Assembly (NCBI GenBank): GCA_026707445.1
Contig: JAPOWV010000004.1
Coordinates: forward strand, 10,170 to 74,169
Direction: 5' to 3'
DNA: 64,000 bases
Origin: Gammaproteobacteria bacterium
GTDB taxonomy: Bacteria > Pseudomonadota > Gammaproteobacteria > Steroidobacterales > Foliamicaceae
Part shown: positions 3,001 through 41,029 of the stretch, piece by piece
Position numbering within the stretch: the first letter of the stretch is position 1
Layout: every line of letters starts with the position of its first letter
Position numbers and translations under genes: made by a program
Notes under the pieces: generated by a model
Told to the model about the DNA's origin: nothing
Databases searched by the model: none
What the model saw: only the letters and a program-made list of their open reading frames with translations

Positions 3001-3535
3001 CATTGCGCCGCTTCCGCCCGAGATTTGCGGCGCCGCTGTGGTGGTTCCGGCTGGAATGGTCAGCTCGAAGCAGACGGCGCCTGAAGACGCGGGCCCTGTG
3101 GAAGACGCTCCGAATGCGCTTAGCCGCGCACAGGTCGAAGCCAGAGCAATGCAGGACGTGATGGAATGCGAGCGCAATTTGGGATTCGAGCCTCGCGACG
3201 TGTCGGACGAAGATCGTGGCTACGATATCGAAAGCCGCGACCCAGGCAATGGCGCACTTCGCTTCATCGAAGTAAAGGGTCGCCGCGCAGACGCGCGGGC
3301 GATTACTATCACCCGCAACGAAATGCTCACAGCGCTCAATGCGCAGAAGGCCTATATTCTGGCAGCGGTGCTGGTGGAAAAGGACATGGCTCACGCGCCG
3401 CTTTACGTGACGAATCCGGCTTCGCTATTCGGCCCCGAACCTGCGTTCAACGAGGTTTCTAGGTCGATCTCAGTCTCTTCCATCAAAGCGGCGGCGCAAG
3501 AGAACGCGACAAAGACCGGCCTGGCCCCGAAATGA
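2..3535 (+). CDS. Superfamily-2 (SNF2/DEAD-like) helicase with C-terminal DUF3883-like restriction-endonuclease-fold domain; 5' end lies outside the window
   Basis: Frame 2 is open from nt 2 (RGSRLTGIQGDG...FRLASEALRIRLAHLFDP), so the listed start at 224 (TTG) is internal. Helicase motifs: LLADDPGSGKTIMAG (I), VVCDEAHRM (II), LLMTATPHNGK (III), VANDAAGEGVNLQ (V), WNPNRLEQRFGRIHRIGQ (VI). C-terminus GYDIESRDPGNGALRFIEVKGRR..ITITRNEM resembles DUF3883. Confidence 0.9.
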   Translation, partial: RGSRLTGIQGDGAVEVIATRAYGLDAVEVTWKGPGGLGERILYRGDEASLQEVASGGRFAFDGDGHAFRLASEALRIRLAHLFDPFVAVNASLIEPLPHQLTAVYGAMLDRQPLRFLLADDPGSGKTIMAGLLIKELLIRGSLERCLIIAPGGLVEQWQDELSDKFDLHFQIMSREQIEMSVTGNPFVEHPRLIARLDMLARNDELKAKLEAAPEWDLVVCDEAHRMSASFFGAEVKYTKRYQLGALAGRQARHFLLMTATPHNGKEEDFQLFMGLLDEDRFEGRFRQGVHKINPADMMRRLTKEELFRFDGSPLFPERRAYTVSYELSPKEANLYSEVTHYVREEMNRADRLADDGSRRRNNVGFALQILQRRLASSPAAIHESLKRRLGRLETRLEEEKLGRKGGGEAASPPPLTTSLGQELDEDDLEDATGEEIEAHEDRLLDLATAAQTIEELEAEIATLRELEKMAKALRRSGEDTKWRELDRILENPLVQDSSRAGRRKLLIFTEARDTLEYLAERIRNRTGEADSVSVIHGGVPRDRRRAVIAAFNDDPKVRFLVANDAAGEGVNLQRGAHLMVNYDLPWNPNRLEQRFGRIHRIGQTEVCHLWNLLASETREGAVYERLLTKLEIARDTLGGKVYDVLGELFAGRPLAELLMEAIRYGDQPDVRARLLQSMDGVVDTDNINALVTRNKLTREGIDPITLRTLRENMERAAARRLQPHHVRSFFEAAFSESGGVMRRREQRRFEVKRVPPLLRDRDRLMGRADPVLPRYQRICFDKEAVSVQPQAVLMAPGHPLLDALIDLTLERHGDVLTRGTVLIDEADRHSAPRVLIVLRHIIRDGRQTRHGKPQSISERLQFVWLDKSGQASQGGAAPYLDCRAPNEEEREQLADLLNASWLKEPLEEHALELAVSQLVPRHLSEVKERLLPEIAKIEAAVKERLRREITHLQHRAFEVEAEERAGKKPRLNSENIRRQANVLTGRLELRLKEIARQRDIAPLPPEICGAAVVVPAGMVSSKQTAPEDAGPVEDAPNALSRAQVEARAMQDVMECERNLGFEPRDVSDEDRGYDIESRDPGNGALRFIEVKGRRADARAITITRNEMLTALNAQKAYILAAVLVEKDMAHAPLYVTNPASLFGPEPAFNEVSRSISVSSIKAAAQENATKTGLAPK

Positions 3536-6483
3536 TCATCCAGCGCAAGAAACTCATCGAAGTGTCGCTGCCGCTCGAAGCCATCAATGCGGCATCGGCG
3601 CGGGAGAAGTCCATCCGGCACGGCCACCCTTCAACTCTGCACCTGTGGTGGGCGCGTCGACCGCTCGCGGCCTGCCGGGCAGTGCTCTTTACCCAGCTTG
3701 TGGATGACCCGTCGTCCTGGCCCGACGAATACCCCACCGAGGAGGACCAAGCACGGGAGCGTGAGCGCCTCCACGGCATCATCAAGGATATGGTGCCTTG
3801 GAAGGCCACCAACAACGAACGTATCCTCGGCAAGGCGCGCTACGAAATTGCCAGATCGATCGCCCGCGGGCGCGGCGATACACTGCCGCAGGTCAACGAT
3901 AACGAGGCGGTGCTGGACTATCTTGCCGAGCACGCGCCGCCAGTCTGCGATCCATTCTGTGGCGGAGGTTCGATTCCGCTCGAAGCGCAACGCTTGGGCC
4001 TGCGCGCCCACGGTTCGGACCTCAATCCCGTCGCAGTGCTGGTCTCCAAGGCGACCTGCGAAATCCCGCCTAAGTTCGCCAATCGACCGCCCATCAATCC
4101 CGACCGTGATCTACATGTCACGTGGAAAGGTGCGCAGGGGCTGGCCGAGGACATTCGCTATTACGGCCGATGGATGCGTGATCAAGCGGAATCCCGCATC
4201 GGGCACCTCTATCCGAAGGTGCGAGTCACCAAGGCCATTGCGGCTGACCGAGACGAATTCAAGCCGTACGTCGGCAAGGACCTGACTGTCATCGCCTGGC
4301 TCTGGGCGCGAACGGTCGCGTCTCCGGATCCAATGATGCGCGGAAAGCATGTGCCGCTTGTCTCATCGTTGATGCTTTCCACGAAACCGGGGAAGAAAGC
4401 GTGGGCTGACATTCTTCGTGACGTCGCTTCACGGGATGGTTGGCGCTTCGAAGTCAATGCCGGAACGCTGGGTAAGGAGGACGAAACCAAAAAGAAACTG
4501 GGGACAAAAGCGGGAAAGGCGCAGGATTTCCTTTGCTGCCTGAGCGGGACACCTGTTCAGCGGACCTATATTCAACTCGAAGGCAAATCCGGGCATCTAG
4601 GCAAACGGTTGATGGCCATTGTGTTGGCTGGCTCCCGGGAGCGGCTTTATTTGTCACCTAACGATCTGCACGAAGGGATAGCTGAATCGCCTGAATTCGC
4701 AGAAATGACGTCAAGCGCGCGAAGCAAATTCCTGTCGGGCACCACGCCTACGCGCGCCATGATTACCGGGGGAGTGTGTTCGGCATACGGGTTTGCAACT
4801 TGGGGACACCTCTTCACCGATCGCCAACTCGTGGCTCTAACGACATTTTCGGGTCTGTTGGAAGAAGCACGCGAGCAGGTGCTGTCGGATGCGCGGGACG
4901 TTGTCGAGGGCTATGGCTCGGCGGCCGACTGGCTACAGGATACGACTTGTCTCGCTGATAATGGTACTGGCGCGCAGGCGTATGCCGATGCCGTAGCGAC
5001 CTACCTCGGATGTGCTGTCGACAAGGCCGCCGATTATTGGAGCGGGTTATGTAGCTGGCACTCGTCTGGCCAGAAGATGAGAAATACATTTGGCCGACAA
5101 GCGATTCCCATGGTTTGGGATTACGCAGAAGGCAATCCATTTTCTGCGTCGACCGGAAACTGGGTCGCTTGCACCGATTGGGTTTGGAAGGTCGTTGGCG
5201 CGTCTCCGGTAGCGGGCATTCAAGCAGCCGTGATACAGCAGGATGCCGCCGGAGAAACGCGACTTGCACACGACGCGATTGTCGCAACCGACCCCCCCTA
5301 CTATGACAACATCGGCTATGCAGAATTGTCGGACTTCTTCTACGTGTGGCAGCGTAGAACTCTGCGCAATGTTTGGCCGGACCTATTTCGCCGTGTCTTA
5401 GTGCCGAAGGATGAGGAATTAGTGGCCACTCCATACCGCCACGGCGGCAAGGCGGCGGCTGAGCAGTTCTTCATGGACGGCATCGGCAAGGCGCTCGCCA
5501 ATATGCACGCATCAGGACGAGATGATTTCCCAGTAACCATCTACTACGCTTTCAAACAGTCAGAGATTGCCAATGAGGGGTTGACTTCGCCTGGATGGGC
5601 AACGTTTCTCCACGCGGTGATCCAAGCGGGCTATGTTATCGGCGGCACATGGCCGGTCAGGACGGAGCTGGTCAACAAGATTATCGCTATCAACGCAAAC
5701 GTTCTCGCCTCCTCCATCGTCCTCGTCTGCCGCAAACGACCGCCGGATGCGCCGGTCATCACCCGCCGGGAGTTTGTGGCGCGGCTTCGCTCGACGCTGC
5801 CGGCTGCGTTGGCCAGAATTCGCGCCGGTGGCGTCGGTCCGGTGGACATGGCGCAGGCCTCAATCGGTCCGGGCATGGGAGTGTTCACAGCGGCAGCGAA
5901 GGTGCTGGAGCCGGACGACACGCCCATGACGGTACGCACGGCGATAGCGCTTATCAACCAGATTCGGGACGAAATCTCGGGCGAGGAGGCAACGGGCTAC
6001 GATGCCGACACTCGCTTTTGCATCGAATGGTTCGAGAACTTCGGAATGGACGAGGGCAAATCCGGGGATGCCATCACCATGGCCCAAGCCTACGACATCG
6101 GCATTGAGGATCTGGAAAACGCGGGTGTGTTTGACGCTCGAGGGGGATCGGCGCGCCTGCTGCGTCGCGACGAATTGCCGGGCGACTGGAATCCCGCCAC
6201 CGACAGGCGATTGACCGACTGGGAATGCGCTCAGCATCTGGCCCGCACGCTCGAATCGCCCGCAGGCGGAATCGAGACCGCCGCGAAGCTCTATGCGAAC
6301 ATGCCGCCGGAGCGTAGCGAGGCCGCGCGAATGCTCGCCTACCGCCTCTACGATATCTGCGAGCGCAAGGATCGTGCGGCGGAGGCGCAGGTTTGGAACA
6401 TGCTGGCGCGGGAGTGGACTGCGCTGGAAACCGCCGCCGCCGCCATTGAGCCGAAGCTCGGATCAGGGCAGCTTCTTCTTTGA
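3532..6483 (+). CDS. DUF1156-family DNA methyltransferase (N6-adenine/N4-cytosine type, DPPY motif)
   Basis: N-terminus KKLIEVSLPLEAINAASAREKSIRHGHPSTLHLWWARRPLAACRAVLF is the DUF1156 signature. SAM-binding motif VCDPFCGGGSIPLEAQRLG; catalytic ATDPPYYDNIGYAELSDFFYVW. Start ATG overlaps the helicase stop (ATGA at 3532-3535). Confidence 0.9.
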   Translation: MIIQRKKLIEVSLPLEAINAASAREKSIRHGHPSTLHLWWARRPLAACRAVLFTQLVDDPSSWPDEYPTEEDQARERERLHGIIKDMVPWKATNNERILGKARYEIARSIARGRGDTLPQVNDNEAVLDYLAEHAPPVCDPFCGGGSIPLEAQRLGLRAHGSDLNPVAVLVSKATCEIPPKFANRPPINPDRDLHVTWKGAQGLAEDIRYYGRWMRDQAESRIGHLYPKVRVTKAIAADRDEFKPYVGKDLTVIAWLWARTVASPDPMMRGKHVPLVSSLMLSTKPGKKAWADILRDVASRDGWRFEVNAGTLGKEDETKKKLGTKAGKAQDFLCCLSGTPVQRTYIQLEGKSGHLGKRLMAIVLAGSRERLYLSPNDLHEGIAESPEFAEMTSSARSKFLSGTTPTRAMITGGVCSAYGFATWGHLFTDRQLVALTTFSGLLEEAREQVLSDARDVVEGYGSAADWLQDTTCLADNGTGAQAYADAVATYLGCAVDKAADYWSGLCSWHSSGQKMRNTFGRQAIPMVWDYAEGNPFSASTGNWVACTDWVWKVVGASPVAGIQAAVIQQDAAGETRLAHDAIVATDPPYYDNIGYAELSDFFYVWQRRTLRNVWPDLFRRVLVPKDEELVATPYRHGGKAAAEQFFMDGIGKALANMHASGRDDFPVTIYYAFKQSEIANEGLTSPGWATFLHAVIQAGYVIGGTWPVRTELVNKIIAINANVLASSIVLVCRKRPPDAPVITRREFVARLRSTLPAALARIRAGGVGPVDMAQASIGPGMGVFTAAAKVLEPDDTPMTVRTAIALINQIRDEISGEEATGYDADTRFCIEWFENFGMDEGKSGDAITMAQAYDIGIEDLENAGVFDARGGSARLLRRDELPGDWNPATDRRLTDWECAQHLARTLESPAGGIETAAKLYANMPPERSEAARMLAYRLYDICERKDRAAEAQVWNMLAREWTALETAAAAIEPKLGSGQLLL

Positions 6484-29920: not shown

Positions 29921-30765
29921 TCGGCCGGCGTTTCGGGCAGGCGGTCCTGGTCGAAGAACTCCCGCAGCATCGCTCCGGCAATCGGTGGGTAAGCATCCAG
30001 AAACCCATGCCCCCAGCCGGGCAGGTTCACCATCCCGCCGTTACCGATCAGCTTGGGCGCGCGCAGGCTCTGTTCCCAGAGGTCGTCTTCGGGGTTCAGG
30101 ACCAGCAACGGGACCTTCAGGGCCGGCATTCTTTCCCATAAGGGATAGTTGAAGGCGGCCCGGTGGCCCCACCAGTACTTGTCGCCGCCGCGCAGGGACT
30201 CGGTGAAGATGGCCGCGGACTTTTCAAGCGAGTGGTGCTGCATGTGCCAACGGACGAATCCCTTCCAGCGCCTGACCAGGTGTGATCCGTCCTCCGCGAT
30301 TGGCTTGGCAGCGTAGAGGCTCCTGTGCTCCTCGAGCTCCTCTTTGGTGAACAGCGGCGCCGAGATCATAACGACGTGGCGCACCTGCTCGGGCCTTCGC
30401 AGCCCCAGTTCTACCGCCGTCTTGGAGCCCGTGTGGTAACCCACGAGATCGATTTCCTCCAGACCCAACTGTTCCACGACCGCCTCCATGGCGTCGGCAT
30501 AGTCCTCGATCTCAGGCGGCTCGGACGGCGCATCCGAAGCGCCGAAACCCGGCGTGTCGGGCGCCACGGCGAGCCGGTCGCGCGCCAGTTCGCTCAGCAG
30601 GCTCTCGTAAACGAGGCCGGAATTCGGACTCATGTGAAAGCAGAGCACCGCACGGCCGGAGGCGCCCGATGCGGGTTCGGCCACGCGCAGGTGCACCTGC
30701 CCGTGCGGTCCATCAACGTAGATCTTGCGAATCATTCTGTAAGTCTCCTGGACAGGGAATTGCAA
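29911..30765 (-). CDS. Alpha/beta-fold hydrolase
   Basis: 284 aa with the typical layout (..LCFHMSPNSG.., ..LVGYHTGSKTAVEL.., ..GHGFLD..). Substrate unknown. Confidence 0.6.
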   Translation of the reverse strand: MQFPVQETYRMIRKIYVDGPHGQVHLRVAEPASGASGRAVLCFHMSPNSGLVYESLLSELARDRLAVAPDTPGFGASDAPSEPPEIEDYADAMEAVVEQLGLEEIDLVGYHTGSKTAVELGLRRPEQVRHVVMISAPLFTKEELEEHRSLYAAKPIAEDGSHLVRRWKGFVRWHMQHHSLEKSAAIFTESLRGGDKYWWGHRAAFNYPLWERMPALKVPLLVLNPEDDLWEQSLRAPKLIGNGGMVNLPGWGHGFLDAYPPIAGAMLREFFDQDRLPETPAECG

Positions 30766-31077
30766 CTACGCCGGGGCGTTTACTAACGGGTAGCAAAGAT
30801 CACCCCAGTCCTCATCGTCTTCGCATAGCTCGGCCCGCTGCAGCCAACTCAGCGCCCGATGAATGCGCAGACCAAGGCGGTCGGAGCGATCCCGCGTGAT
30901 GCGCTCGGCCCGCTCCATCGGCGCAGCGTGATCGAAGCGCATGGCCTGCTCCTCGTCCTCCTGCTGCCGCAGGGCGATTCCCGCCTCCGTTGCGTCGTGC
31001 ACGACTGCCGGGTTTATCCGCCCCTTGGGGAGCGTTGAGGGATCAGCGGGATCAATCCTGATGCGCATTTCGCTCAT
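30766..31077 (-). pseudogene. Probable chimeric gene remnant (antitoxin-like N-terminal motif fused to the first helix of a HEPN-like protein)
   Basis: 103-aa ORF. DPADPSTLPKGRINPAVVHDATEAGIALRQQEDE resembles N-termini of BrnA/DUF4415-type antitoxins. SDRLGLRIHRALSWLQRAELCEDDEDW resembles the start of a HEPN-type family, then ends abruptly (GDLCYPLVNAPA*) against the next gene. Both similarities are from memory only. Confidence 0.3.
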
Positions 31078-31229
31078 GGTATCCGACCTCTTTCGCGTTG
31101 GCCTCGCGGGCCGAAATGATAGTGCCCTGGGTCAATCGTCCCTGTTTTGGCCCTGGTGTGCGGGGACGTGTGATTTAGCGGCGCGGCGAATAGAAAAAGA
31201 GAGGCTGGTATCCGTGCGAGAATGAGCGC

Positions 31230-31303
31230 GAAGCTGCCGAGGTTGGTTCCTAGCCCTGCCTTGTCAACCGGGTGCTGCGGGTTCGATTCCCGCCGGCAGC
31301 TTC
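31230..31303 (+). pseudogene. tRNA-like element / decayed tRNA (possible island attachment-site remnant)
   Basis: Canonical T-arm GCGGG-TTCGATT-CCCGC (31278-31294). Terminal helix GAAGCTGCCG (31230-39) pairs with CGGCAGCTTC (31294-31303), 10 bp. Only 37 nt lie between the acceptor and T-stem, and no canonical D or anticodon arm folds. CCTGCCTTGTCAAC resembles a tRNA-Asp (GUC) anticodon arm with indels. No CCA end. Confidence 0.4.
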
Positions 31304-31354
31304 CTGCTCGCCGCCAATTATAGCCTCATTTCCGTATAGGATTACGCTCGCTTC

Positions 31355-31564
31355 ATGTCATCCGATTTGAACGATCCGGTTGGAGCGCTTGCCGCATTGC
31401 TGCCAGATTCGCCGCGGCAAAACCTTCGTCAGCCGATCTCGACCGCTCCGAGGACGAGATCATGCGGGATACGATCGGCGACATTGCCGAATCTCGCCGT
31501 GAACGCCGCCACGGCGAGCGATGAGGAACGGTATTTGGCGCGCTTGCGGAAAGAAACATCGTGA
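31355..31564 (+). CDS. Hypothetical small ORF (69 aa) whose stop overlaps the R-M gene start
   Basis: Its TGA overlaps the GTG start of the type IIG gene (GTGA at 31561-31564). No recognisable domain, and composition is not clearly coding. Confidence 0.2.
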   Translation: MSSDLNDPVGALAALLPDSPRQNLRQPISTAPRTRSCGIRSATLPNLAVNAATASDEERYLARLRKETS

Positions 31565-34500
31565 ATTTATTCAACCAAAAGACCCTCGACCGCCAAATCA
31601 CAGGCGCGTTAACCATCCCACCGGATCATCTGTCCCTCTTGGGAGATTGGGCGGAAATGATCAAGACGAAGCGCATCTACTCGTTCAAGGAAACGTCGCT
31701 GCATCCCGATTTCAAGCCCAGGATCGTGGAGGGCGTGTTGGGATACCACGGACCCACCCACGGGCCGGTTTATACAGTCGAGGCAGAACAGGGAATTCTG
31801 CAAGGGAGCGTAGATTTGGCGCTCGGCAGATTTGGCGATGGCCCGCCCGAAATTCTTGCTCCTTTCGAGTTGAAGGGTGCGGGCACTCGTAATCTCGATG
31901 CCATCATGCCTGGCCGAAACAAGAGCCCCGTGCAGCAGGCTTGGGAATACGCAACGAATGTGCCTGGCGTGAAGTGGGTTCTGGTTTCGAATTATGTTGA
32001 GTTGCGGCTTTATGCGTTTGGCGAAGGGACAACCGCGTATGAAGCTTTTTGGTTTGAACGTCTGACCGAGCCGAAAGAATACGCCCGGTTCATGCTTCTC
32101 TTGTCGGCAGATAGTCTGCTGAAAGGACGCACTCTTGATTTGTTGAAAGCGAGCCGTCGCGAAGACAGGGATATTACCGACAGCCTTTACGGTGACTACA
32201 AGGAACTGCGTTCTTTCCTGATCGGAGCGGTTCGCGAGTTAAATACGGGAGTTCGGGAGGCGGATGCGACCATTGAAGAGCTTGAAGCTATTGCTGTCGC
32301 ACAAAAGATTCTCGACCGCATTCTGTTTATCGCGTTCGCAGAAGACACTGGTCTCCTTCCCCGCGAAACCCTCAGTAACGCTTTCCAAAGTCGCGATCCC
32401 TACAACCCTCGACCTGTTTGGAATAACTTCCGTGGTCTGTTCCGGGCAGTTAATGAGGGCAACAAAGAACTGCGCATTCCACCATACAACGGCGGATTGT
32501 TCCTTCCCAATGAAAACATTGATGATTTGAACTTGCCGGACGAAGTCTGCGAAGGATTCAAAGCGATCGGTGACTATGATTTTGCGTCGGAAGTGTCTGT
32601 CACCGTGCTTGGCCACATTTTCGAACAGTCCATAGCGGACATTGAGCGTCTTCAAGCGGTCGCCCGGGGCGAAGAAGAAGATCCAGAAAAAACAACGGCG
32701 ATATCCGGACGCCGCAAGCGCGATGGGGTCGTGTACACGCCTGACTACATTGCCCGGTTTATCGTCGAGGAGACACTTGGTGCTCATTTGGAGGAGATCT
32801 TTGCGTCCATATTGAAACAGTTTGCTTTAGAGGGGGAAGATATATCCGATTTCTCTGTCATACGCTGGCGGCGAAAGTCGGGCGAGTTGGAAGCCTGGGA
32901 AGCCTACCGCGAACGTCTGCGGTCACTGCGAATTGTGGATCCGGCATGCGGTTCCGGGGTGTTTCTAGTAATGGCCTTCGACTATATGAAGCACGAACTT
33001 TTTCGTGTAAACGACAAGATTGCTAAGCTTGAAGGATCGCGTGGCTACACAGAAGATCTTCTCGATCCCGACAGCGAGATACTGTCGAACAATTTGTTCG
33101 GCGTGGACGTGAACTCGGAGAGCGTAGAAATTACGAAGCTATCGCTCTGGATTAAGACCGCCCGCCACGGCAAGGAACTGGATAGTCTTTCAAGGAATAT
33201 TCGGGTTGGGGATAGCCTGATTGAAAGCGCCAACTATGCTTATCTTGAGCACGGATTTGATTGGGCCACTGCCTTTCCAGAGGTAATGGGCGAAGAAGGT
33301 GGCTTCGATATTGTCATAGGAAATCCTCCCTATGTTCGCATGGAGCTACTCAAGGCGCTTAAACCTTACCTGGAAACCCGGTACGAGGTCGTTTCTGACC
33401 GAGCAGATCTTTACTGCTACTTCTACGAACGTGGGTTGAGGCTACTGAAACCTGGAGGACGGCTCGGCTACATTTCCTCAAACACTTTCTTCAAGACGCG
33501 CTCAGGCAAACCACTGCGGAAGTACCTGTTGCGGGAAGCAACCATCGAAAGTGTGGTGGATTTTGGTGATCTTCAGGTCTTTGAAGGCGTAACTACGTAC
33601 CCGGCTATTGTGGTTCTCAGACGCAGCCCCGCGCCACAGGAGCACGAGTTGCGCTTTTGGAAGGTGGTTGCTTTGCCGGAGGCCAACTTTCGCGCGACTT
33701 GGGCTAGGAGCTTGCGCCGTAGAAAATTTCGGCGCCAAAGAGGGACACAATTTGCCGACAAGATGACCTATGAACCCACCGAAACCTGTTCGTGGCATCT
33801 TTTGTGACGCTATTCCCCACGACCAATTCTCGAAAAGCGTTCTGCGGCGCAAGCTCCTAGATCGGCGGATGATTATCCGCAAGCGGTGCTTGATAAGGGT
33901 TCATGGGAACTTGAAGGCGCATCCATGCTCGCCCTGCGCAATAAGATCAGAAGCGGCAAGCCGACACTGAAAGGGGTATACGGTTTACCACTTTACGGCA
34001 TCAAGACCGGGCTTAACGCGGCCTTCGTGATCGATACCGAAATCAAGGACCGACTGTGTGCTGAAGATGCACGATCTATAGAGCTACTGAAGCCATTCCT
34101 AGAGGGTAAGGATCTTAAGCGATGGCGAGCGGAGCCGCGTGGTCGATGGCTTATCTACATTCCGAAAAATCGGGTAAATATCGACGATTATCCGGTGATT
34201 CGAGATTGGCTCCTCCCCTTCCGAGGAAGGCTAGAAAAACGCGCAACAAAGCAGAAATGGTTTGAGTTGCAACAAGCTCAAGAAGCTTATGTCCCGCATT
34301 TCAATGGTCCGAAGATTGCGTACAAAGATATTGGAAACGGTGCGCCGTTTCATGTGGATACAAGCGGAGCTTTCTTGGCAAACACCGGTTACTTCATCCC
34401 AACTGGTGAACACCACATCGCCGCCTACCTGAATTCAAGAGTCTTTTGGTTCACTTATTTGAATGTTAGTGCCCAGCTTAGGGGTGGGTATGTGCGTTTT

Positions 34501-34926
34501 TTCTCGAACCACTTGGGAGAAATGCCTATCCCGGAGCTTTCACCAACCGTCAAGGGGGAACTCTCTGACTTATCAAAGATTGTTCACCAAGATGCTGAGA
34601 AGCGCCTTATCCTGCAACGGGCCTTCATCCGCCGTATTCCCGACCTATGCCCGCCTGAGCGTCAACCAAAACTCACAAAGAAACTTAAGGAATGGTGGCG
34701 GCTTCCGGATTTCGCCGCCTTCCGTACTGAGATAAAGAAGGCATTCAAGGCGGATATTCCGCTTGCCGAGCGATCCGACTGGGAAGACTGGATCGATCGG
34801 GATCGCGCAGAGATCAATCGTCTTTCCGCCGAGGTTGCTGAAGCGGAGATGCGAATCGATCGTATCGTTTACGGCTTGTTTGATTTGACGCGTGAAGAAA
34901 TCGAGTTTCTCGAAGCATCAATCTGA
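31561..34926 (+). pseudogene. MmeI-like type IIG/IIL restriction-modification enzyme (nuclease + gamma-class N6-adenine methyltransferase + TaqI-C-like specificity domain), interrupted by a MITE
   Basis: N-terminal PD-(D/E)xK-like VDLALG..PFELKGAG..SPVQQAWEYA..WVLVSNYVELRLY. Methyltransferase motif I IVDPACGSGVFLV and motif IV VIGNPPYV. C-terminal half (ORF 33886-34926) ..YGIKTGLNAAFVID.. ..IDRIVYGLFDLTREEIEFLE. The first ORF ends at a stop inside the insertion (33805-33807). Both ORFs are in the same frame, and removing 153 nt gives one 1070-aa protein. Confidence 0.85.
33704..33860 (+). mobile_element. 157-bp MITE (copy 1) inserted in the type IIG R-M gene
   Basis: Perfect 16-bp terminal inverted repeats CTAGGAGCTTGCGCCG (33704-19) / CGGCGCAAGCTCCTAG (33845-60). 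No coding capacity. A second copy lies at 39801-39957 in the opposite orientation. Ends are consistent with a CTAG target (TA or CTAG duplication), as in the IS630 or IS5 families. Confidence 0.85.
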
Positions 34927-34937
34927 ACTCGCCGCCT

Positions 34938-34958
34938 CGGCTTTGCTGTGCAAAGCCG
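34938..34958. terminator. Hairpin between convergent R-M gene and ppk2 (possible bidirectional terminator)
   Basis: CGGCTTTGC-TGT-GCAAAGCCG, 9-bp stem, followed by GTTT. The U-tract is weak. Confidence 0.4.
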
Positions 34959-34965
34959 GTTTGGG

Positions 34966-35934
34966 CTACGCGGAATCCATCGGGGTTTCGCCGTCCACGA
35001 CGCGCCTGGCCGGGCCGGCTATCAGCGCATCGGGGCCGCGGACGACCTCCCGGTCCTTGTCGGGATACGGCAGCTTCATGAGGAAATGCTGTAAAGCAGC
35101 GATACGGGCGCGTTTCTTGTCGTCGGACTTGATGACCGTCCAGGGCGCATCGGCTGTATCCGTATAGAAGAACATCGCCTCCTTCGCTTCCGTATAGTCC
35201 TCCCACTTGTCCAGCGATGCAAGATCGATCGGCGAGATCTTCCACTGTTTCAGAGGGTCGGTCCGGCGGCTGTCGAACCTGTGCGCCTGCTCCTCCTGAG
35301 AGACGGAAAAGTAGAACTTGAAAAGGTGAATGCCGCTGTTCACCAGCATGCGCTCCAGGTTCGGACACTGGCGCATGAATTCGAGATATTCCGCCCGCGT
35401 GCAGAAGCCCATCACCCGTTCCACGCCGGCGCGGTTGTACCAGGAGCGGTCGAACAGCACGATCTCCCCTTCAGCGGGGAGATGTTCGATATAGCGCTGG
35501 AAGTACCACTGGCCGCGCTCCCGGTCGTTGGGTTTCTCCAGGGCCACGACGCGTGCGCCGCGCGGATTCAGATGCTCCATGAAGCGCTTTATCGTCCCGC
35601 CTTTGCCGGCCGCGTCGCGTCCCTCGCACAGGACCAGCACCTTTGCGCCCGATTCCTTGATCCACCGTTGGGCCTTGAGCAATTCGACCTGCAGCGAGGC
35701 TTTGTGCCGTTCGTATTCCTTGCGCCGCATCTTGTCGGAATAGGGATAGACGCCCTCCTGGAATACGCGCTTGATGGCGTCGGCGGAATGCGGAGCGTTC
35801 GGGAGGCCGAGGTTCCCCTGCGCCACGCGCGCCTCTTCCTCAGCAGCGTCCGGCTGCTCCGGGCGCGGCTTCGCGCCTGCCCTGCGGGCGGCCTGATCGC
35901 GCCCGTTGCCCTTTACGCCGACCTCCCGGCTCAT
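34966..35934 (-). CDS. ppk2: Polyphosphate kinase 2 (PPK2) family protein
   Basis: YERHKASLQVELLKAQRWIKESGAKVLVLCEGRDAAGKGGTIKRFMEHLNPRGARVVAL (Walker A-like GRDAAGKGG), ..WYFQRY..LPA.GEIVLFDRSWYNRAGVERVMGF.. Confidence 0.9.
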   Translation of the reverse strand: MSREVGVKGNGRDQAARRAGAKPRPEQPDAAEEEARVAQGNLGLPNAPHSADAIKRVFQEGVYPYSDKMRRKEYERHKASLQVELLKAQRWIKESGAKVLVLCEGRDAAGKGGTIKRFMEHLNPRGARVVALEKPNDRERGQWYFQRYIEHLPAEGEIVLFDRSWYNRAGVERVMGFCTRAEYLEFMRQCPNLERMLVNSGIHLFKFYFSVSQEEQAHRFDSRRTDPLKQWKISPIDLASLDKWEDYTEAKEAMFFYTDTADAPWTVIKSDDKKRARIAALQHFLMKLPYPDKDREVVRGPDALIAGPARRVVDGETPMDSA

Positions 35935-38317: not shown

Positions 38318-38405
38318 TCCGGCAGGGAACGTGATCCGCAGGAGCGGCCGGACGGATGTCCCCGCGTGCCGGCTGTTGGATTGCGCGCCGGCCGGCGCCG
38401 GAAAA

Positions 38406-38621
38406 TCAGGCGTTCAGATCCGGAATCTGTTCACTCTCCAGGCGCGTGATCATGTCCTTCAGGCGCAATTTGCGCTTCTTCATACGTTTCAGCATGAATT
38501 GATCGGCGCTCGCATGTTTTGACATTTCCGCGATGGCGAGATCCAGATCCCTGTGCTCGTCCCTGAGTTGCTTGATTCTTTCCCGATTGGCAAAAACCTG
38601 TGTTTCGACGTTTGAATTCAT
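38406..38621 (-). CDS. DUF465 (YdcH-like) small protein
   Basis: 71 aa from the ATG at 38621: ..RIKQLRDEHRDLDLAIAEMSKHASADQFMLKRMKKRKLRLKDMITRLES is the DUF465 coiled-coil pattern. The longer listed ORF (to 38933) is not supported. Confidence 0.7.
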   Translation of the reverse strand: MNSNVETQVFANRERIKQLRDEHRDLDLAIAEMSKHASADQFMLKRMKKRKLRLKDMITRLESEQIPDLNA

Positions 38622-38739
38622 CTGGCCTTGAATGCAATGGCGCAGGCGCTCCGAAATCCGCTCCCGGCTTCCTGCCCCGCCTACCCTGCATTGTAGCGCG
38701 CCGCTGCCCACTTGCAACGCAGAGGATTGAATCTTCAAC

Positions 38740-38766
38740 GCAACGGTCGATGTGCAACGGTCGATG
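38740..38766. repeat. Tandem direct repeat, 2 x 13 nt (GCAACGGTCGATG) with 1-nt spacer
   Basis: Copies at 38740-38752 and 38754-38766, about 120 nt upstream of the T5orf172 gene ATG. Confidence 0.8.
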
Positions 38767-38885
38767 ATGGCCTCCCGGGCAGGTGACCATACAATAGCAG
38801 CAGCTACGGGGGTGCTGGCGCTTAAGTTTCGACCTTTAGCCCTTAAAGAACGGTGCCGCTGGCACGCAACCAAGAGAAGAAGTTC

Positions 38886-39674
38886 ATGCGGGACGAAAAC
38901 TACTCCGAGGAAGTGCAACGAGCATTTGAGCAAGACAACGAGGATGGAAAGAGAATTGGTCAGGTATGGAAGCTGACCAAAGAGGGGAAGGGACCAGACG
39001 AGATTGCACAGGCGCTGGGTGTGTCTACCTCCACGTTCGTTTACGGCTACAGGAGCTTCATAAAGGCAATTGAGGATGGCGATTTACCGAAGAGCACGAC
39101 ACCGGCTAGGGACTGTGCCTCGGCTCTCCGTGGTTTTTCAGAGCGTCATTACAAATTGGAAATCCTGTCCCGGGCAAATTACTTGCAGATCCGGGATTAC
39201 GCAACAGAATGCGAGCAAATCCACTTCGATCTTAATAAGCGGGAAGAAGAGGACCAAGAGCTTGAGAAACAAACCATTACCGCCCTTGAATCGGCAGGCC
39301 CGGGGATTTATGTGTACACACTGCCACACTATCTTCGTTTTCCCATCGAGCCCAGCAGGGACGAATATGCCGACCACCGTACCTACTTGAAAGTGGGAAT
39401 GTCCGATAAGGATGCTTTTAAGCGGGCTATGGACCAAAACACTACGGCGCTCCCGGAGCCGATTGTGGTGCTGCGAATATATGAGCCGCCAGAAGGCGTC
39501 GAGCTTAAGGACGTTGAAGGCAGGATGCATACCCACTTGACCAACGCTGATCACCTTCGCAACAGGCAGAGGGGAGCGGGAAAGGAATGGTTCCTGACCC
39601 ATCTGAAGTTTCTTGACGCAACCGCCCGTCTTCTTAACCTGGAAACCAAGTTTGAGAAGCCCATTTCGGGCTGA
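38886..39674 (+). CDS. HTH + T5orf172/GIY-YIG-like (MUG113) domain protein
   Basis: C-terminal GIYVYTLPHY..YLKVGMSDKDAFKRAMDQN..PEPIVVLRIY..ELKDVEGRMHTHL..RGAGKEWF fits the T5orf172 pattern (GxxY..KIG.T..R....E..LH....EWF). N-terminal GKGPDEIAQALGVSTSTFVYGYRSF looks like a helix-turn-helix. Lower GC than the flanks. An alternative GTG start is at 38853. Confidence 0.7.
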   Translation: MRDENYSEEVQRAFEQDNEDGKRIGQVWKLTKEGKGPDEIAQALGVSTSTFVYGYRSFIKAIEDGDLPKSTTPARDCASALRGFSERHYKLEILSRANYLQIRDYATECEQIHFDLNKREEEDQELEKQTITALESAGPGIYVYTLPHYLRFPIEPSRDEYADHRTYLKVGMSDKDAFKRAMDQNTTALPEPIVVLRIYEPPEGVELKDVEGRMHTHLTNADHLRNRQRGAGKEWFLTHLKFLDATARLLNLETKFEKPISG

Positions 39675-39800
39675 ACCGGACTGTTTGATCGAGAGTTCAA
39701 GCTGGGCCACTTAGTCGTTACTCAGCCGGCAAGGCGAACGGGCGGTCAGCCTCCAGCAGGCGGGTTAGCCACCGACATATTGGATGGAACGCGGCAAAGG

Positions 39801-39957
39801 CTAGGAGCTTGCGCCCCAGAACGCTTTTCGAGAATTGGTCGTGGGGAATAGCGTCACAAAAGATGCCACGAACAGGTTTCGGTGGGTTCATAGGTCATCT
39901 TGTCGGCAAATTGTGCCCCTCTTTGGCGCCGAAATTTTCTACGGCGCAAGCTCCTAG
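39801..39957 (-). mobile_element. 157-bp MITE (copy 2), inverted relative to copy 1
   Basis: Reverse complement of 33704-33860 with 2 mismatches in 157 nt (aligned by eye). Same CTAG-bounded ends. Intergenic. Confidence 0.85.
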
Positions 39958-40227
39958 AGGAAGGATTGGAACTTGGTATCAATGAGGCACGTTTGTTCTG
40001 CGATCTCATCCGCAGCTATCTAAAATACCTAATTTCGGAACATGAGCGCCTTTCAGTTTAGACATTATGGCCTTTCGCCGAGTAGTTGAGCGTGAGTTGT
40101 GGGCGGTGGCAGGCATTGATCGAGTAAGAGGTGGTCGATGATGATGGCATCTTGGGTGGGCGACAGCGCACTTGCGTTAATTCTCTGGTAGGATCATCAA
40201 TCAGCCCTTTCGCAAAGAGCTTCGGAA

Positions 40228-40479
40228 ATGGCCCAAACGCGCCTGAATGACGAATTTGCCTACTACTTGGCGCACCAGGAACAATTGGTGAGCCAGCACA
40301 ACGGCAAGTGCGTCGTCATTAAGAACAAGAAGATCATCGGCGTGTATGACAATTACCTGGAAGCGGTTAAGGAGACAATCCGCCAAGGGCATCAAGCAGG
40401 CACATTCTTGACACAACGCGTGTCTCCTGGCGAGAAAGACTACACGAGCGTCTTTCATTCCAGGGTAGCGTTCAGCTGA
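40228..40479 (+). CDS. Small hypothetical protein (DUF5678-like), partner of the downstream protease
   Basis: 83 aa; ..YLAHQEQLVSQHNGKCVVIKNKKIIGVYDNYLEAVKETIRQ.. fits the G-K-x-V-x-I..g.i.g...s..ea pattern of small proteins found upstream of retropepsin-like genes. Family name is from memory. Confidence 0.5.
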   Translation: MAQTRLNDEFAYYLAHQEQLVSQHNGKCVVIKNKKIIGVYDNYLEAVKETIRQGHQAGTFLTQRVSPGEKDYTSVFHSRVAFS

Positions 40480-40526
40480 CCGCCAGTTTCACAGTAGAGA
40501 GCAGGGGTGGACTATTCAATTCGCTC

Positions 40527-40973
40527 GTGACGCCGTGCGCCGTGGCATCGCCCATAGACAATGCAGCATCTGCTATTGAGTATCTGGCTCTGTGGGATAC
40601 CGGCGCGACGAGGTCCGTGATTGACAGGCGGGTTGCCAGTCAATGCGCTCTTCTTCCAGTGGGGATTCAGAGGGTGACGGGGGTTCATGGCGCCGCAGAT
40701 GCGAATGCCTACCTCATCAAACTGACGTTGCCCAATGATGTCGTTTTTCCGAGTTTGATGGTCACAGAAGGATCGCTTGGCGAAGAAATCGGCGTTCTTA
40801 TTGGCATGGATGTCATTTCGTGTGGAGACTTCGCCGTCACCAACCGCGACAACCGGACTATATTCACGTTCCGGATGCCATCCATCGCGCGCCACGACTA
40901 CGTCAAAGAACATGAGGCCAGCGAGCGGCGAAGACTCAAGAAGACTCGCAGGAAAGTACGCAAAAGACGTTGA
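40527..40973 (+). CDS. Retropepsin-like (clan AA) aspartic protease, single domain
   Basis: Catalytic LALWDTGATRSVI (D-T-G-A) plus ..VLIGMDVIS.. typical of retroviral-type protease monomers. Strongly basic tail RRRLKKTRRKVRKRR. GTG start; lower GC. Confidence 0.7.
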   Translation: MTPCAVASPIDNAASAIEYLALWDTGATRSVIDRRVASQCALLPVGIQRVTGVHGAADANAYLIKLTLPNDVVFPSLMVTEGSLGEEIGVLIGMDVISCGDFAVTNRDNRTIFTFRMPSIARHDYVKEHEASERRRLKKTRRKVRKRR

Positions 40974-41029
40974 TCGGGTTCTGCCCAAGGCAATGAGCCA
41001 AGGGAGGCGCGGGTTAAACTCGCTCGCCT

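Follow-up and report, generated by a model that had tools for sequence, protein, structure and literature searches.

The locus described here is a Type IIG restriction-modification gene that is interrupted by a short, CTAG-bounded MITE (miniature inverted-repeat transposable element). It lies in a 64,000-nucleotide stretch of DNA, hereafter the window, from contig JAPOWV010000004.1 of an uncultured gammaproteobacterium, and a second copy of the element is present in the same window. The features, in window coordinates, are as follows.

31561..33707, forward strand: 5' part of the Type IIG gene, codons 1-716, with a putative nuclease region, a helical spacer and a gamma-class N6-adenine methyltransferase
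33704..33860, forward strand: MITE copy 1 including both flanking CTAGs, 157 nt
33704..33724, forward strand: left terminal inverted repeat of copy 1, CTAG GAGCTTGCGCCGTAGAA
33805..33807, forward strand: in-frame TGA within copy 1; the truncated product ends after 32 element-encoded residues (SLRRRKFRRQRGTQFADKMTYEPTETCSWHLL)
33840..33860, reverse strand: right terminal inverted repeat of copy 1, the reverse complement of which is CTAG GAGCTTGCGCCGCAGAA
33861..34926, forward strand: 3' part of the same gene, codons 717-1070 and the stop codon, with a TaqI_C-type target-recognition domain and a C-terminal helical region
39801..39957, reverse strand: MITE copy 2, inverted and CTAG-bounded, 155/157 identical (98.7%) to copy 1

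Copy 1 is flanked by CTAG at 33704-33707 and 33857-33860, and its ends form an inverted repeat, CTAGGAGCTTGCGCCG, that is perfect over 16 nt, in agreement with an earlier note made from the letters of the window, and stretches to a match of 20/21 nt. Because the target site is palindromic, a duplication of 2 nt (TA) is indistinguishable from one of 4 nt (CTAG), the ends reading GGAG...CTCC or GAG...CTC. For a CTAG duplication the element proper accordingly measures 149 nt (33708-33856), for a TA duplication 151 nt (33707-33857), and in both cases 153 nt were gained. Copy 1 has no transposase gene, only short open reading frames (ORFs) that run through from its flanks, and the fold predicted for it as single-stranded DNA (-36.6 kcal/mol, z = -5.6) is a long terminal stem. 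The sequence GGAGCTTGCGCCGYAGAA stands at both ends, and the same ends are found on eight elements of 1577-1647 bp; the 18-nt end of the left repeat is also present on these full-length elements, which are of the IS1182 type.

An ORF of 748 aa (31561-33807) enters copy 1 and stops at the TGA, and a second ORF (33886-34926) shares its frame. Removal of 153 nt, by any of the equivalent cuts, gives one ORF of 1070 aa without a stop, which reads ...EANFRATWAR|SADDYPQAVLDKGSWELEG... over the junction, i.e. RATWAR|SADDYPQ. What the earlier note had stated on the two ORFs, the stop and the restored frame could all be confirmed; the restored protein also matches its homologues in length and sequence. 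The start codon is uncertain: GTG 31561 suits the closest homologue of 1070 aa (P0001, see below), and the gene callers of the assemblies took ATG 31657. We found no database record of the exact 748-aa truncated product, because the gene callers picked the later start.

Pfam searches with the restored protein returned Eco57I (1.9e-47, residues 510-674), MmeI_Mtase, N6_Mtase and TaqI_C (1.1e-11, residues 793-939), together with a match to MmeI_hel slightly under the cut-off. Methyltransferase motif I (VDPACGSGVF) and motif IV (NPPY) are both in the 5' part of the gene. The assignment of an N-terminal nuclease is weak: MmeI_N matched with only 15.7 bits (E = 0.019, below the cut-off of 27), and a putative PD-(D/E)XK nuclease region (D85...E103-L-K105) was recognised as a pattern by eye only. 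The PADLOC model REase_MTase_IIG (PDLC03609) matched with 423 bits in one stretch, residues 97-1068 against positions 96-1063 of 1066, and the solved adenine methyltransferase structure 7lni aligned continuously across the junction. Judged by these domains, the gene is a single-polypeptide Type IIG (Eco57I/MmeI-like) restriction-modification gene, as the earlier note had proposed, with methyltransferase and recognition domain in one protein and a defence profile that is unbroken over the junction.

The closest relatives of the gene lack the insert. At E <= 1e-20, 3831 homologues of the restored protein were found; the best 120 are all 1031-1093 aa long, and 37 of the 37 homologues that were aligned (1031-1093 aa) pass residues 716|717 without a gap or extra segment. 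A native insertion or intein-like segment is ruled out, since none of the aligned homologues has the segment and an in-frame stop lies inside it; the interpretation as a mobile element thus withstands the refuting condition set in the earlier note, full-length homologues with an equivalent segment. P0001 (91% identity, exactly 1070 aa) reads RATWARSADDYPQAVLDKGSWELEG over the junction, and its contig, L001, which comes from another sponge metagenome sample, represents the same chromosomal locus. Positions 1-3124 of L001 align to window 30584-33707 with 98.3% nucleotide identity and positions 3121-3559 to window 33857-34294, the two blocks overlapping by exactly 4 nt (CTAG). L001 has a single CTAG and no element, whereas the window has two CTAGs. 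This is the classical signature of an insertion with target duplication. Two sponge metagenomes other than the source of L001, runs X5 and X6, also contain the empty site: one contig of X5 skips from 33703 to 33857 (153 nt, with 4 ambiguous nt), and a 2.7-kb contig of X6 skips about 153 nt at the same point, both contigs being from strains that are about 95% identical to the window. Copy 1 is a MITE-type non-autonomous transposon with a CTAG target; the identification made in the earlier note is upheld by the shared ends, the small non-coding size, the target duplication seen against the empty site and the second copy.

The same comparison revealed a difference within the recognition domain. 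Window 34294-34613 (codons ~860-966) gave no blastn alignment to L001 3559-3877 in alleles that are otherwise 95-98% identical, the L001 lineage has 57 non-synonymous versus 60 synonymous changes, and the differences between window and L001 are densest in codons ~800-1000. The recognition domain looks swapped or fast-evolving, and the two alleles probably recognise different DNA motifs.

Because the insertion, after residue 716, sits between the Eco57I methyltransferase domain and the TaqI_C recognition domain, the truncated product keeps the catalytic parts and loses the domain that reads DNA. From this architecture and from what is known of MmeI-type enzymes, both restriction and modification would most likely be abolished. 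One could instead imagine that the nuclease-methylase and a separately translated recognition fragment reassemble as two subunits of a split, functional enzyme. The break between domains rather than within one, and the long open frames kept by both halves, would be in keeping with such an enzyme; related enzymes with a separate specificity subunit exist, and BsaXI is among the solved-structure matches. However, a promoter scan of 33400-34200 detected no promoter-like site in or after copy 1, and by inspection of the sequence we saw no Shine-Dalgarno sequence before GTG 33886, which is the first in-frame start of the 3' part, the first in-frame ATG being further downstream. Moreover, 0/120 of the closest homologues are split. 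We consider a reassembled two-subunit enzyme distinctly improbable. The annotation needs correcting: the adjacent gene calls, of 716 aa and 333 aa, belong to a single interrupted Type IIG gene, and the strain has therefore probably lost this restriction barrier together with its methylation motif.

Over 13.7-21 kb, the three assemblies L122, L123 and L124, which stem from differing samples and studies, match the window with 100% identity, and all of them contain both element copies and the split gene calls in one orientation. In run X3, one unitig of 408 nt spans copy 1 completely, together with both flanks, and shows no difference. Agreement of three independent assemblies and single unitigs rules out an assembly artefact; taken with the empty sites and the second copy, it also puts the structure well outside anything expected by chance. 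The runs of the host strain, X1-X4, gave occupied contigs only and no joint across the element, bearing in mind that contigs drop rare variants. The occupied allele is most likely fixed in the host strain. With L125 as outgroup, 31 synonymous changes and 8 non-synonymous ones fall on the window lineage, on which the gene has gained neither another stop nor a frameshift. The divergence is a mosaic, with almost none in codons 1-450 and the remainder clustered elsewhere; it is probably recombinational and mostly older than the insertion. As a test of relaxed constraint, the polarised substitutions are uninformative. The insertion itself is most likely recent, which the absence of further damage to the gene fits.

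The earlier note had raised the idea that precise excision could make the inactivation reversible. In such a switch, excision would be frequent enough for the population to keep both states, a case of phase variation by transposon. The idea has its attractions, as exact removal restores an undamaged 1070-aa gene, no secondary lesions have accumulated, empty and occupied alleles both exist in sponge metagenomes, and the long terminal hairpin could favour slippage between the duplicated CTAGs. However, the empty alleles come from strains whose flanks diverge by 2-5%, and not from the occupied strain, the contigs of X1-X4 speak against it within their limit for rare variants, and the 31:8 ratio of synonymous to non-synonymous changes is equally explained by a recent insertion. 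Excision by DDE cut-and-paste transposases leaves the donor site unsealed, and slippage between 2-4-nt repeats is rare. We found no support for the idea and regard such a switch as very unlikely. The multiple-of-3 length of the insertion, to which the earlier note had attached meaning, is irrelevant because the in-frame TGA stops translation inside the element and so blocks read-through; precise excision would restore the gene after an insertion of any length.

The search for further copies proposed in the earlier note yielded copy 2, at another CTAG 5940 nt away from copy 1; both copies have complete ends. Copy 2 is located in the non-coding spacer between a gene with a T5orf172 domain (38853-39674) and a DUF5678 gene (40228-40479), and its removal reconstitutes no gene. 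No empty allele was found for the copy 2 site. The flanks of copy 2 were recovered as loose ends in X1, X2, X4 and X5. In X1 and X2 the flanking loose ends show only two contexts for the element core, which means that the element is low-copy in the host genome. Run X5 has copy 2 within its own flanks at >=98% identity, and the restriction-modification allele there is diverged and empty. The depths of the X5 contigs are similar (7.0 and 5.7), which allows a same-strain origin, although it is unproven. If they are from one strain, copy 2 would be the older and copy 1 the newer transposition, since X5 has copy 2 together with an empty site in the restriction-modification gene; this suggests that copy 2 is older and the likely source copy.

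Two almost identical, inverted copies with complete ends might also point to a composite or invertible segment, in which the copies would act together and either carry the intervening 5.9 kb along as a transposon or invert it through homologous recombination. However, the gene halves are collinear across copy 1, L001 runs from the restriction-modification gene into the PPK2 gene without the element, and L122-L124 have one orientation only. Sister lineages that have neither of the islands in which the copies lie show synteny of the core genes between the copies (PPK2, amidohydrolase, transporter and DUF465). A composite transposon is rejected in view of these ancestral and syntenic flanks, and movement or inversion of the segment as a whole is an extremely unlikely explanation. 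The island around copy 2 (window 38400-41000) is low in GC and absent from sister lineages; besides copy 2 and the T5orf172 and DUF5678 genes it contains a retropepsin-like aspartyl protease gene (40527-40973), and none of these three genes matches a PADLOC defence model.

To identify relatives of the element, we scanned one genome per species for exact matches to TAGGAGCTTGCGCCNNAGAA and obtained at least 120 stretches (L002-L121), which match the window element only over the terminal 21-30 nt. Paired ends in these stretches fall into four size classes of ~50-54, 92-110, 148-179 and 1577-1647 nt. The long class consists of eight elements of 1577-1647 bp with GGAGYYTGCGCCGYAGAA ends (in L111, L115, L116, L082, L016, L063, L073 and L081), and 8/8 are flanked by C-TA...TA-G. 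Examples are given below.

L115:4791-6394: full-length element
L116:3908-5511: full-length element
L063:320-1896: full-length element

The long elements encode a transposase of 440-456 aa that matches the IS1182 equivalog model NF033551 of NCBIfam with 396.2 bits against a cut-off of 270 (E = 2.3e-118), and Pfam recognises DUF772, DDE_Tnp_1 and DDE_Tnp_1_6 in it. Elements of the IS630 family insert at CTAG with a TA duplication, and those of the IS5 family produce a 4-nt YTAR duplication; the flanks of the window element are compatible with either, and the earlier note had found the insertion to match one of these two types. However, the transposase of the elements that share its ends is a different one: the best IS5 model, NF033581, reached 72.5 bits against a cut-off of 140, and no IS630 model was among the NCBIfam matches. 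IS630 and IS5 are rejected as the parent, the transposase falling outside both families. The parental insertion sequence (IS) with the same terminal repeats, for which the earlier note had advised a search, is represented by the eight IS1182-type elements. They share with the window element the same 18-nt ends and carry the transposase domains of the family, and the window element has matching ends, no coding capacity and a target duplication. They differ from it in that its internal 110 nt match none of the retrieved full-length elements. All eight and both window copies are at CTAG; we found no documented CTAG preference for IS1182 in the literature that we searched. A metagenome-assembled genome (MAG) of Pseudomonadales contains CTAG-bounded MITEs of 168 bp that have 25-30 nt in common with the window element at each end and an unrelated core. 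Going by its ends, the window element is a MITE of an IS1182-type lineage.

IS1182 relatives also occur in the metagenomes in which the locus was found. A contig of 2762 nt in X1 is ~84% alike and is not assignable to the host. Segments of the transposase gene (L063:250-1970) have word depths in the thousands in X5 and X6, where the host genome has ~6-11x, and the gene shows many internal-deletion joints in both runs. By these depths and joints, the IS1182 group is extremely abundant and diverse in the communities of X5 and X6.

We consider it very likely that a trans-mobilised cut-and-paste insertion produced a null allele in an accessory defence gene. A DDE transposase, the action of which we infer for this host, would have mobilised in trans a small non-autonomous transposon that descends from an IS1182-family insertion sequence. 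This transposon inserted at a CTAG inside the accessory Type IIG gene of an uncultured, sponge-associated gammaproteobacterium, duplicating TA or CTAG, and the in-frame stop 32 codons into the element severs the nuclease-methylase part from the DNA-reading domain. Several observations weigh against this explanation. The 64-kb window contains no IS1182 transposase (tblastn gave chance-level matches only). The exact element with its own core was found only twice, and the plasmid, JGI metagenome and viral collections had no match: blastn of the element against 72,556 plasmids gave no match, exact-pattern scans of JGI metagenome contigs with the element core and with the extended 24-nt end gave 0 matches each, and a scan of viral contigs with the end motif likewise gave 0. 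The loss of enzyme activity would follow from domain architecture only, and the two gene halves, which both stay open, are compatible with a split working enzyme. Comparison of the whole window with Rfam gave no family at the element.

The genomic setting of the two copies is accessory. Every organism-labelled run with the locus is a sponge metagenome, and one weak match, X9, has a coded organism name. Proteins >=90% identical to those of the neighbouring core genes come from MAGs of uncultured Gammaproteobacteria. Both copies lie in strain-specific, low-GC accessory DNA (~52% GC versus 62.7% for the window). CTAG is strongly depleted in the window, with 31 sites where base composition predicts 219 and a trinucleotide Markov estimate 59, and it is ~3 times denser in the two low-GC islands than elsewhere in the window. 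These islands, 10% of the total length, contain 7/29 of the pre-insertion CTAG sites, and two insertions would both fall there with a probability of ~0.06. The enrichment is a simple, unproven reason why a CTAG-seeking element would land in foreign DNA, and it is suggestive only. The Type IIG gene occupies a variable defence-island slot between the PPK2 gene and an alpha/beta-hydrolase gene (window 31200-35000; 11000-17800 in L127-L130). The slot holds the Type IIG gene in the window and in L001, a Type III-like system (ResIII helicase and N6_N4 methylase) plus a Gp49/HTH (helix-turn-helix) toxin-antitoxin-like pair in L127 and L129, and only the Gp49/HTH pair in L128 and L130.

Comparable events are known from other bacteria. 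Intragenic bacterial MITEs such as the Rickettsia palindromic elements, ERIC and the Correia elements have been reviewed (PMC10969869); they share with the window element a size of ~100-170 bp, inverted repeats at the ends, the capacity to form hairpins and a position within genes. However, translation usually continues in frame through the Rickettsia palindromic elements, which so come to be included in the protein, whereas the window element carries a stop and truncates it. IS insertion into cas genes reportedly inactivates defence (PMC10359306); there, too, a mobile element knocks out an immunity gene and removes a barrier to incoming DNA, with the difference that the agent in the window is a non-autonomous MITE, the target a Type IIG gene and the host an uncultured symbiont. 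In Campylobacter jejuni, Type IIG enzymes are phase-variable via a homopolymeric tract and demonstrably reversible (PMC4889913). Common to both cases is a Type IIG enzyme, made as one polypeptide, that is turned off with no lethal effect on the cell; in contrast to the tract-mediated reversibility in C. jejuni, our locus has given only occupied contigs in its host strain. The literature searched for MITE or IS insertions into restriction-modification genes offered only two papers for comparison, both cited here. That an IS or MITE inserts into a defence gene is known from earlier cases, and the case in the window is a real but ordinary knock-out. Its value is that it documents, cleanly and with a dating, a MITE acting in an animal symbiont that is uncultured: the site is known in its empty and its occupied state, along with a likely source copy and candidate parents. 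It also points to a CTAG-targeting IS1182 element family whose ends are common to MAGs of several phyla.

The titles of the MAGs from which the at least 120 end-carrying stretches come name Vicinamibacterales/Acidobacteria, Bryobacterales, Thermoanaerobaculia, Pseudomonadales and other Gammaproteobacteria, further Longimicrobiales/Palauibacter/Gemmatimonadaceae (Gemmatimonadota), Binatia, Latescibacterota, a deltaproteobacterium and an Albidovulum MAG. The ~20-nt ends are thus present in MAGs labelled with at least five bacterial phyla, and isolate tags and the sponge-metagenome runs indicate that most of these MAGs are apparently from sponge and coral microbiomes. This distribution suggests that one IS lineage has spread across phyla within holobionts, in which case the shared ends would directly document, at the sequence level, that genes flow between phyla in sponge and coral microbiomes. 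We found no published description of the element family or of IS1182-derived MITEs in sponges. A far-reaching extension would be a holobiont-restricted, multi-phylum, CTAG-targeting lineage, made up of IS1182-type insertion sequences, MITEs of 150-170 bp, hairpins of ~50 bp and tandem units of ~105 nt, that moves between unrelated sponge symbionts; as CTAG is scarce in their core genomes and commoner in recently acquired low-GC DNA, its insertions would favour foreign islands, defence genes among them, and the community mobilome would then systematically, perhaps reversibly, lower restriction barriers inside the sponge. We think this improbable.

A related repeat that is absent from the window is a conserved, CTAG-bounded unit of 105-110 nt, which we observed at L034:3740-4010, L110:2850-3065 and L085:1260-1375, in L104, L120, L008 and L038, and at ~20 more loci. 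It consists of a hairpin of two element-end copies, the exact motif GGTGGGGGCTGGGGCC and a second hairpin, and the unit's two ends do not form an inverted repeat with each other. The stem of the second hairpin appears, by eye, to covary between taxa (GCCGACCCG/CGGGTTGGC, GCCAAACGCG/CGCGTTTGGC and GCCAGACGCC/GGCGTTT). The unit occurs in MAGs of Acidobacteria and Gammaproteobacteria, often in head-to-tail arrays with one CTAG in common. An Rfam search of ten loci with related repeats gave no family at the repeats and a single match elsewhere, in L038. Unrelated to the element, L038:2553-2832, from a sponge gammaproteobacterial MAG, gave a strong Rfam match to the 5' ureB small RNA (RF02514, 103.8 bits).

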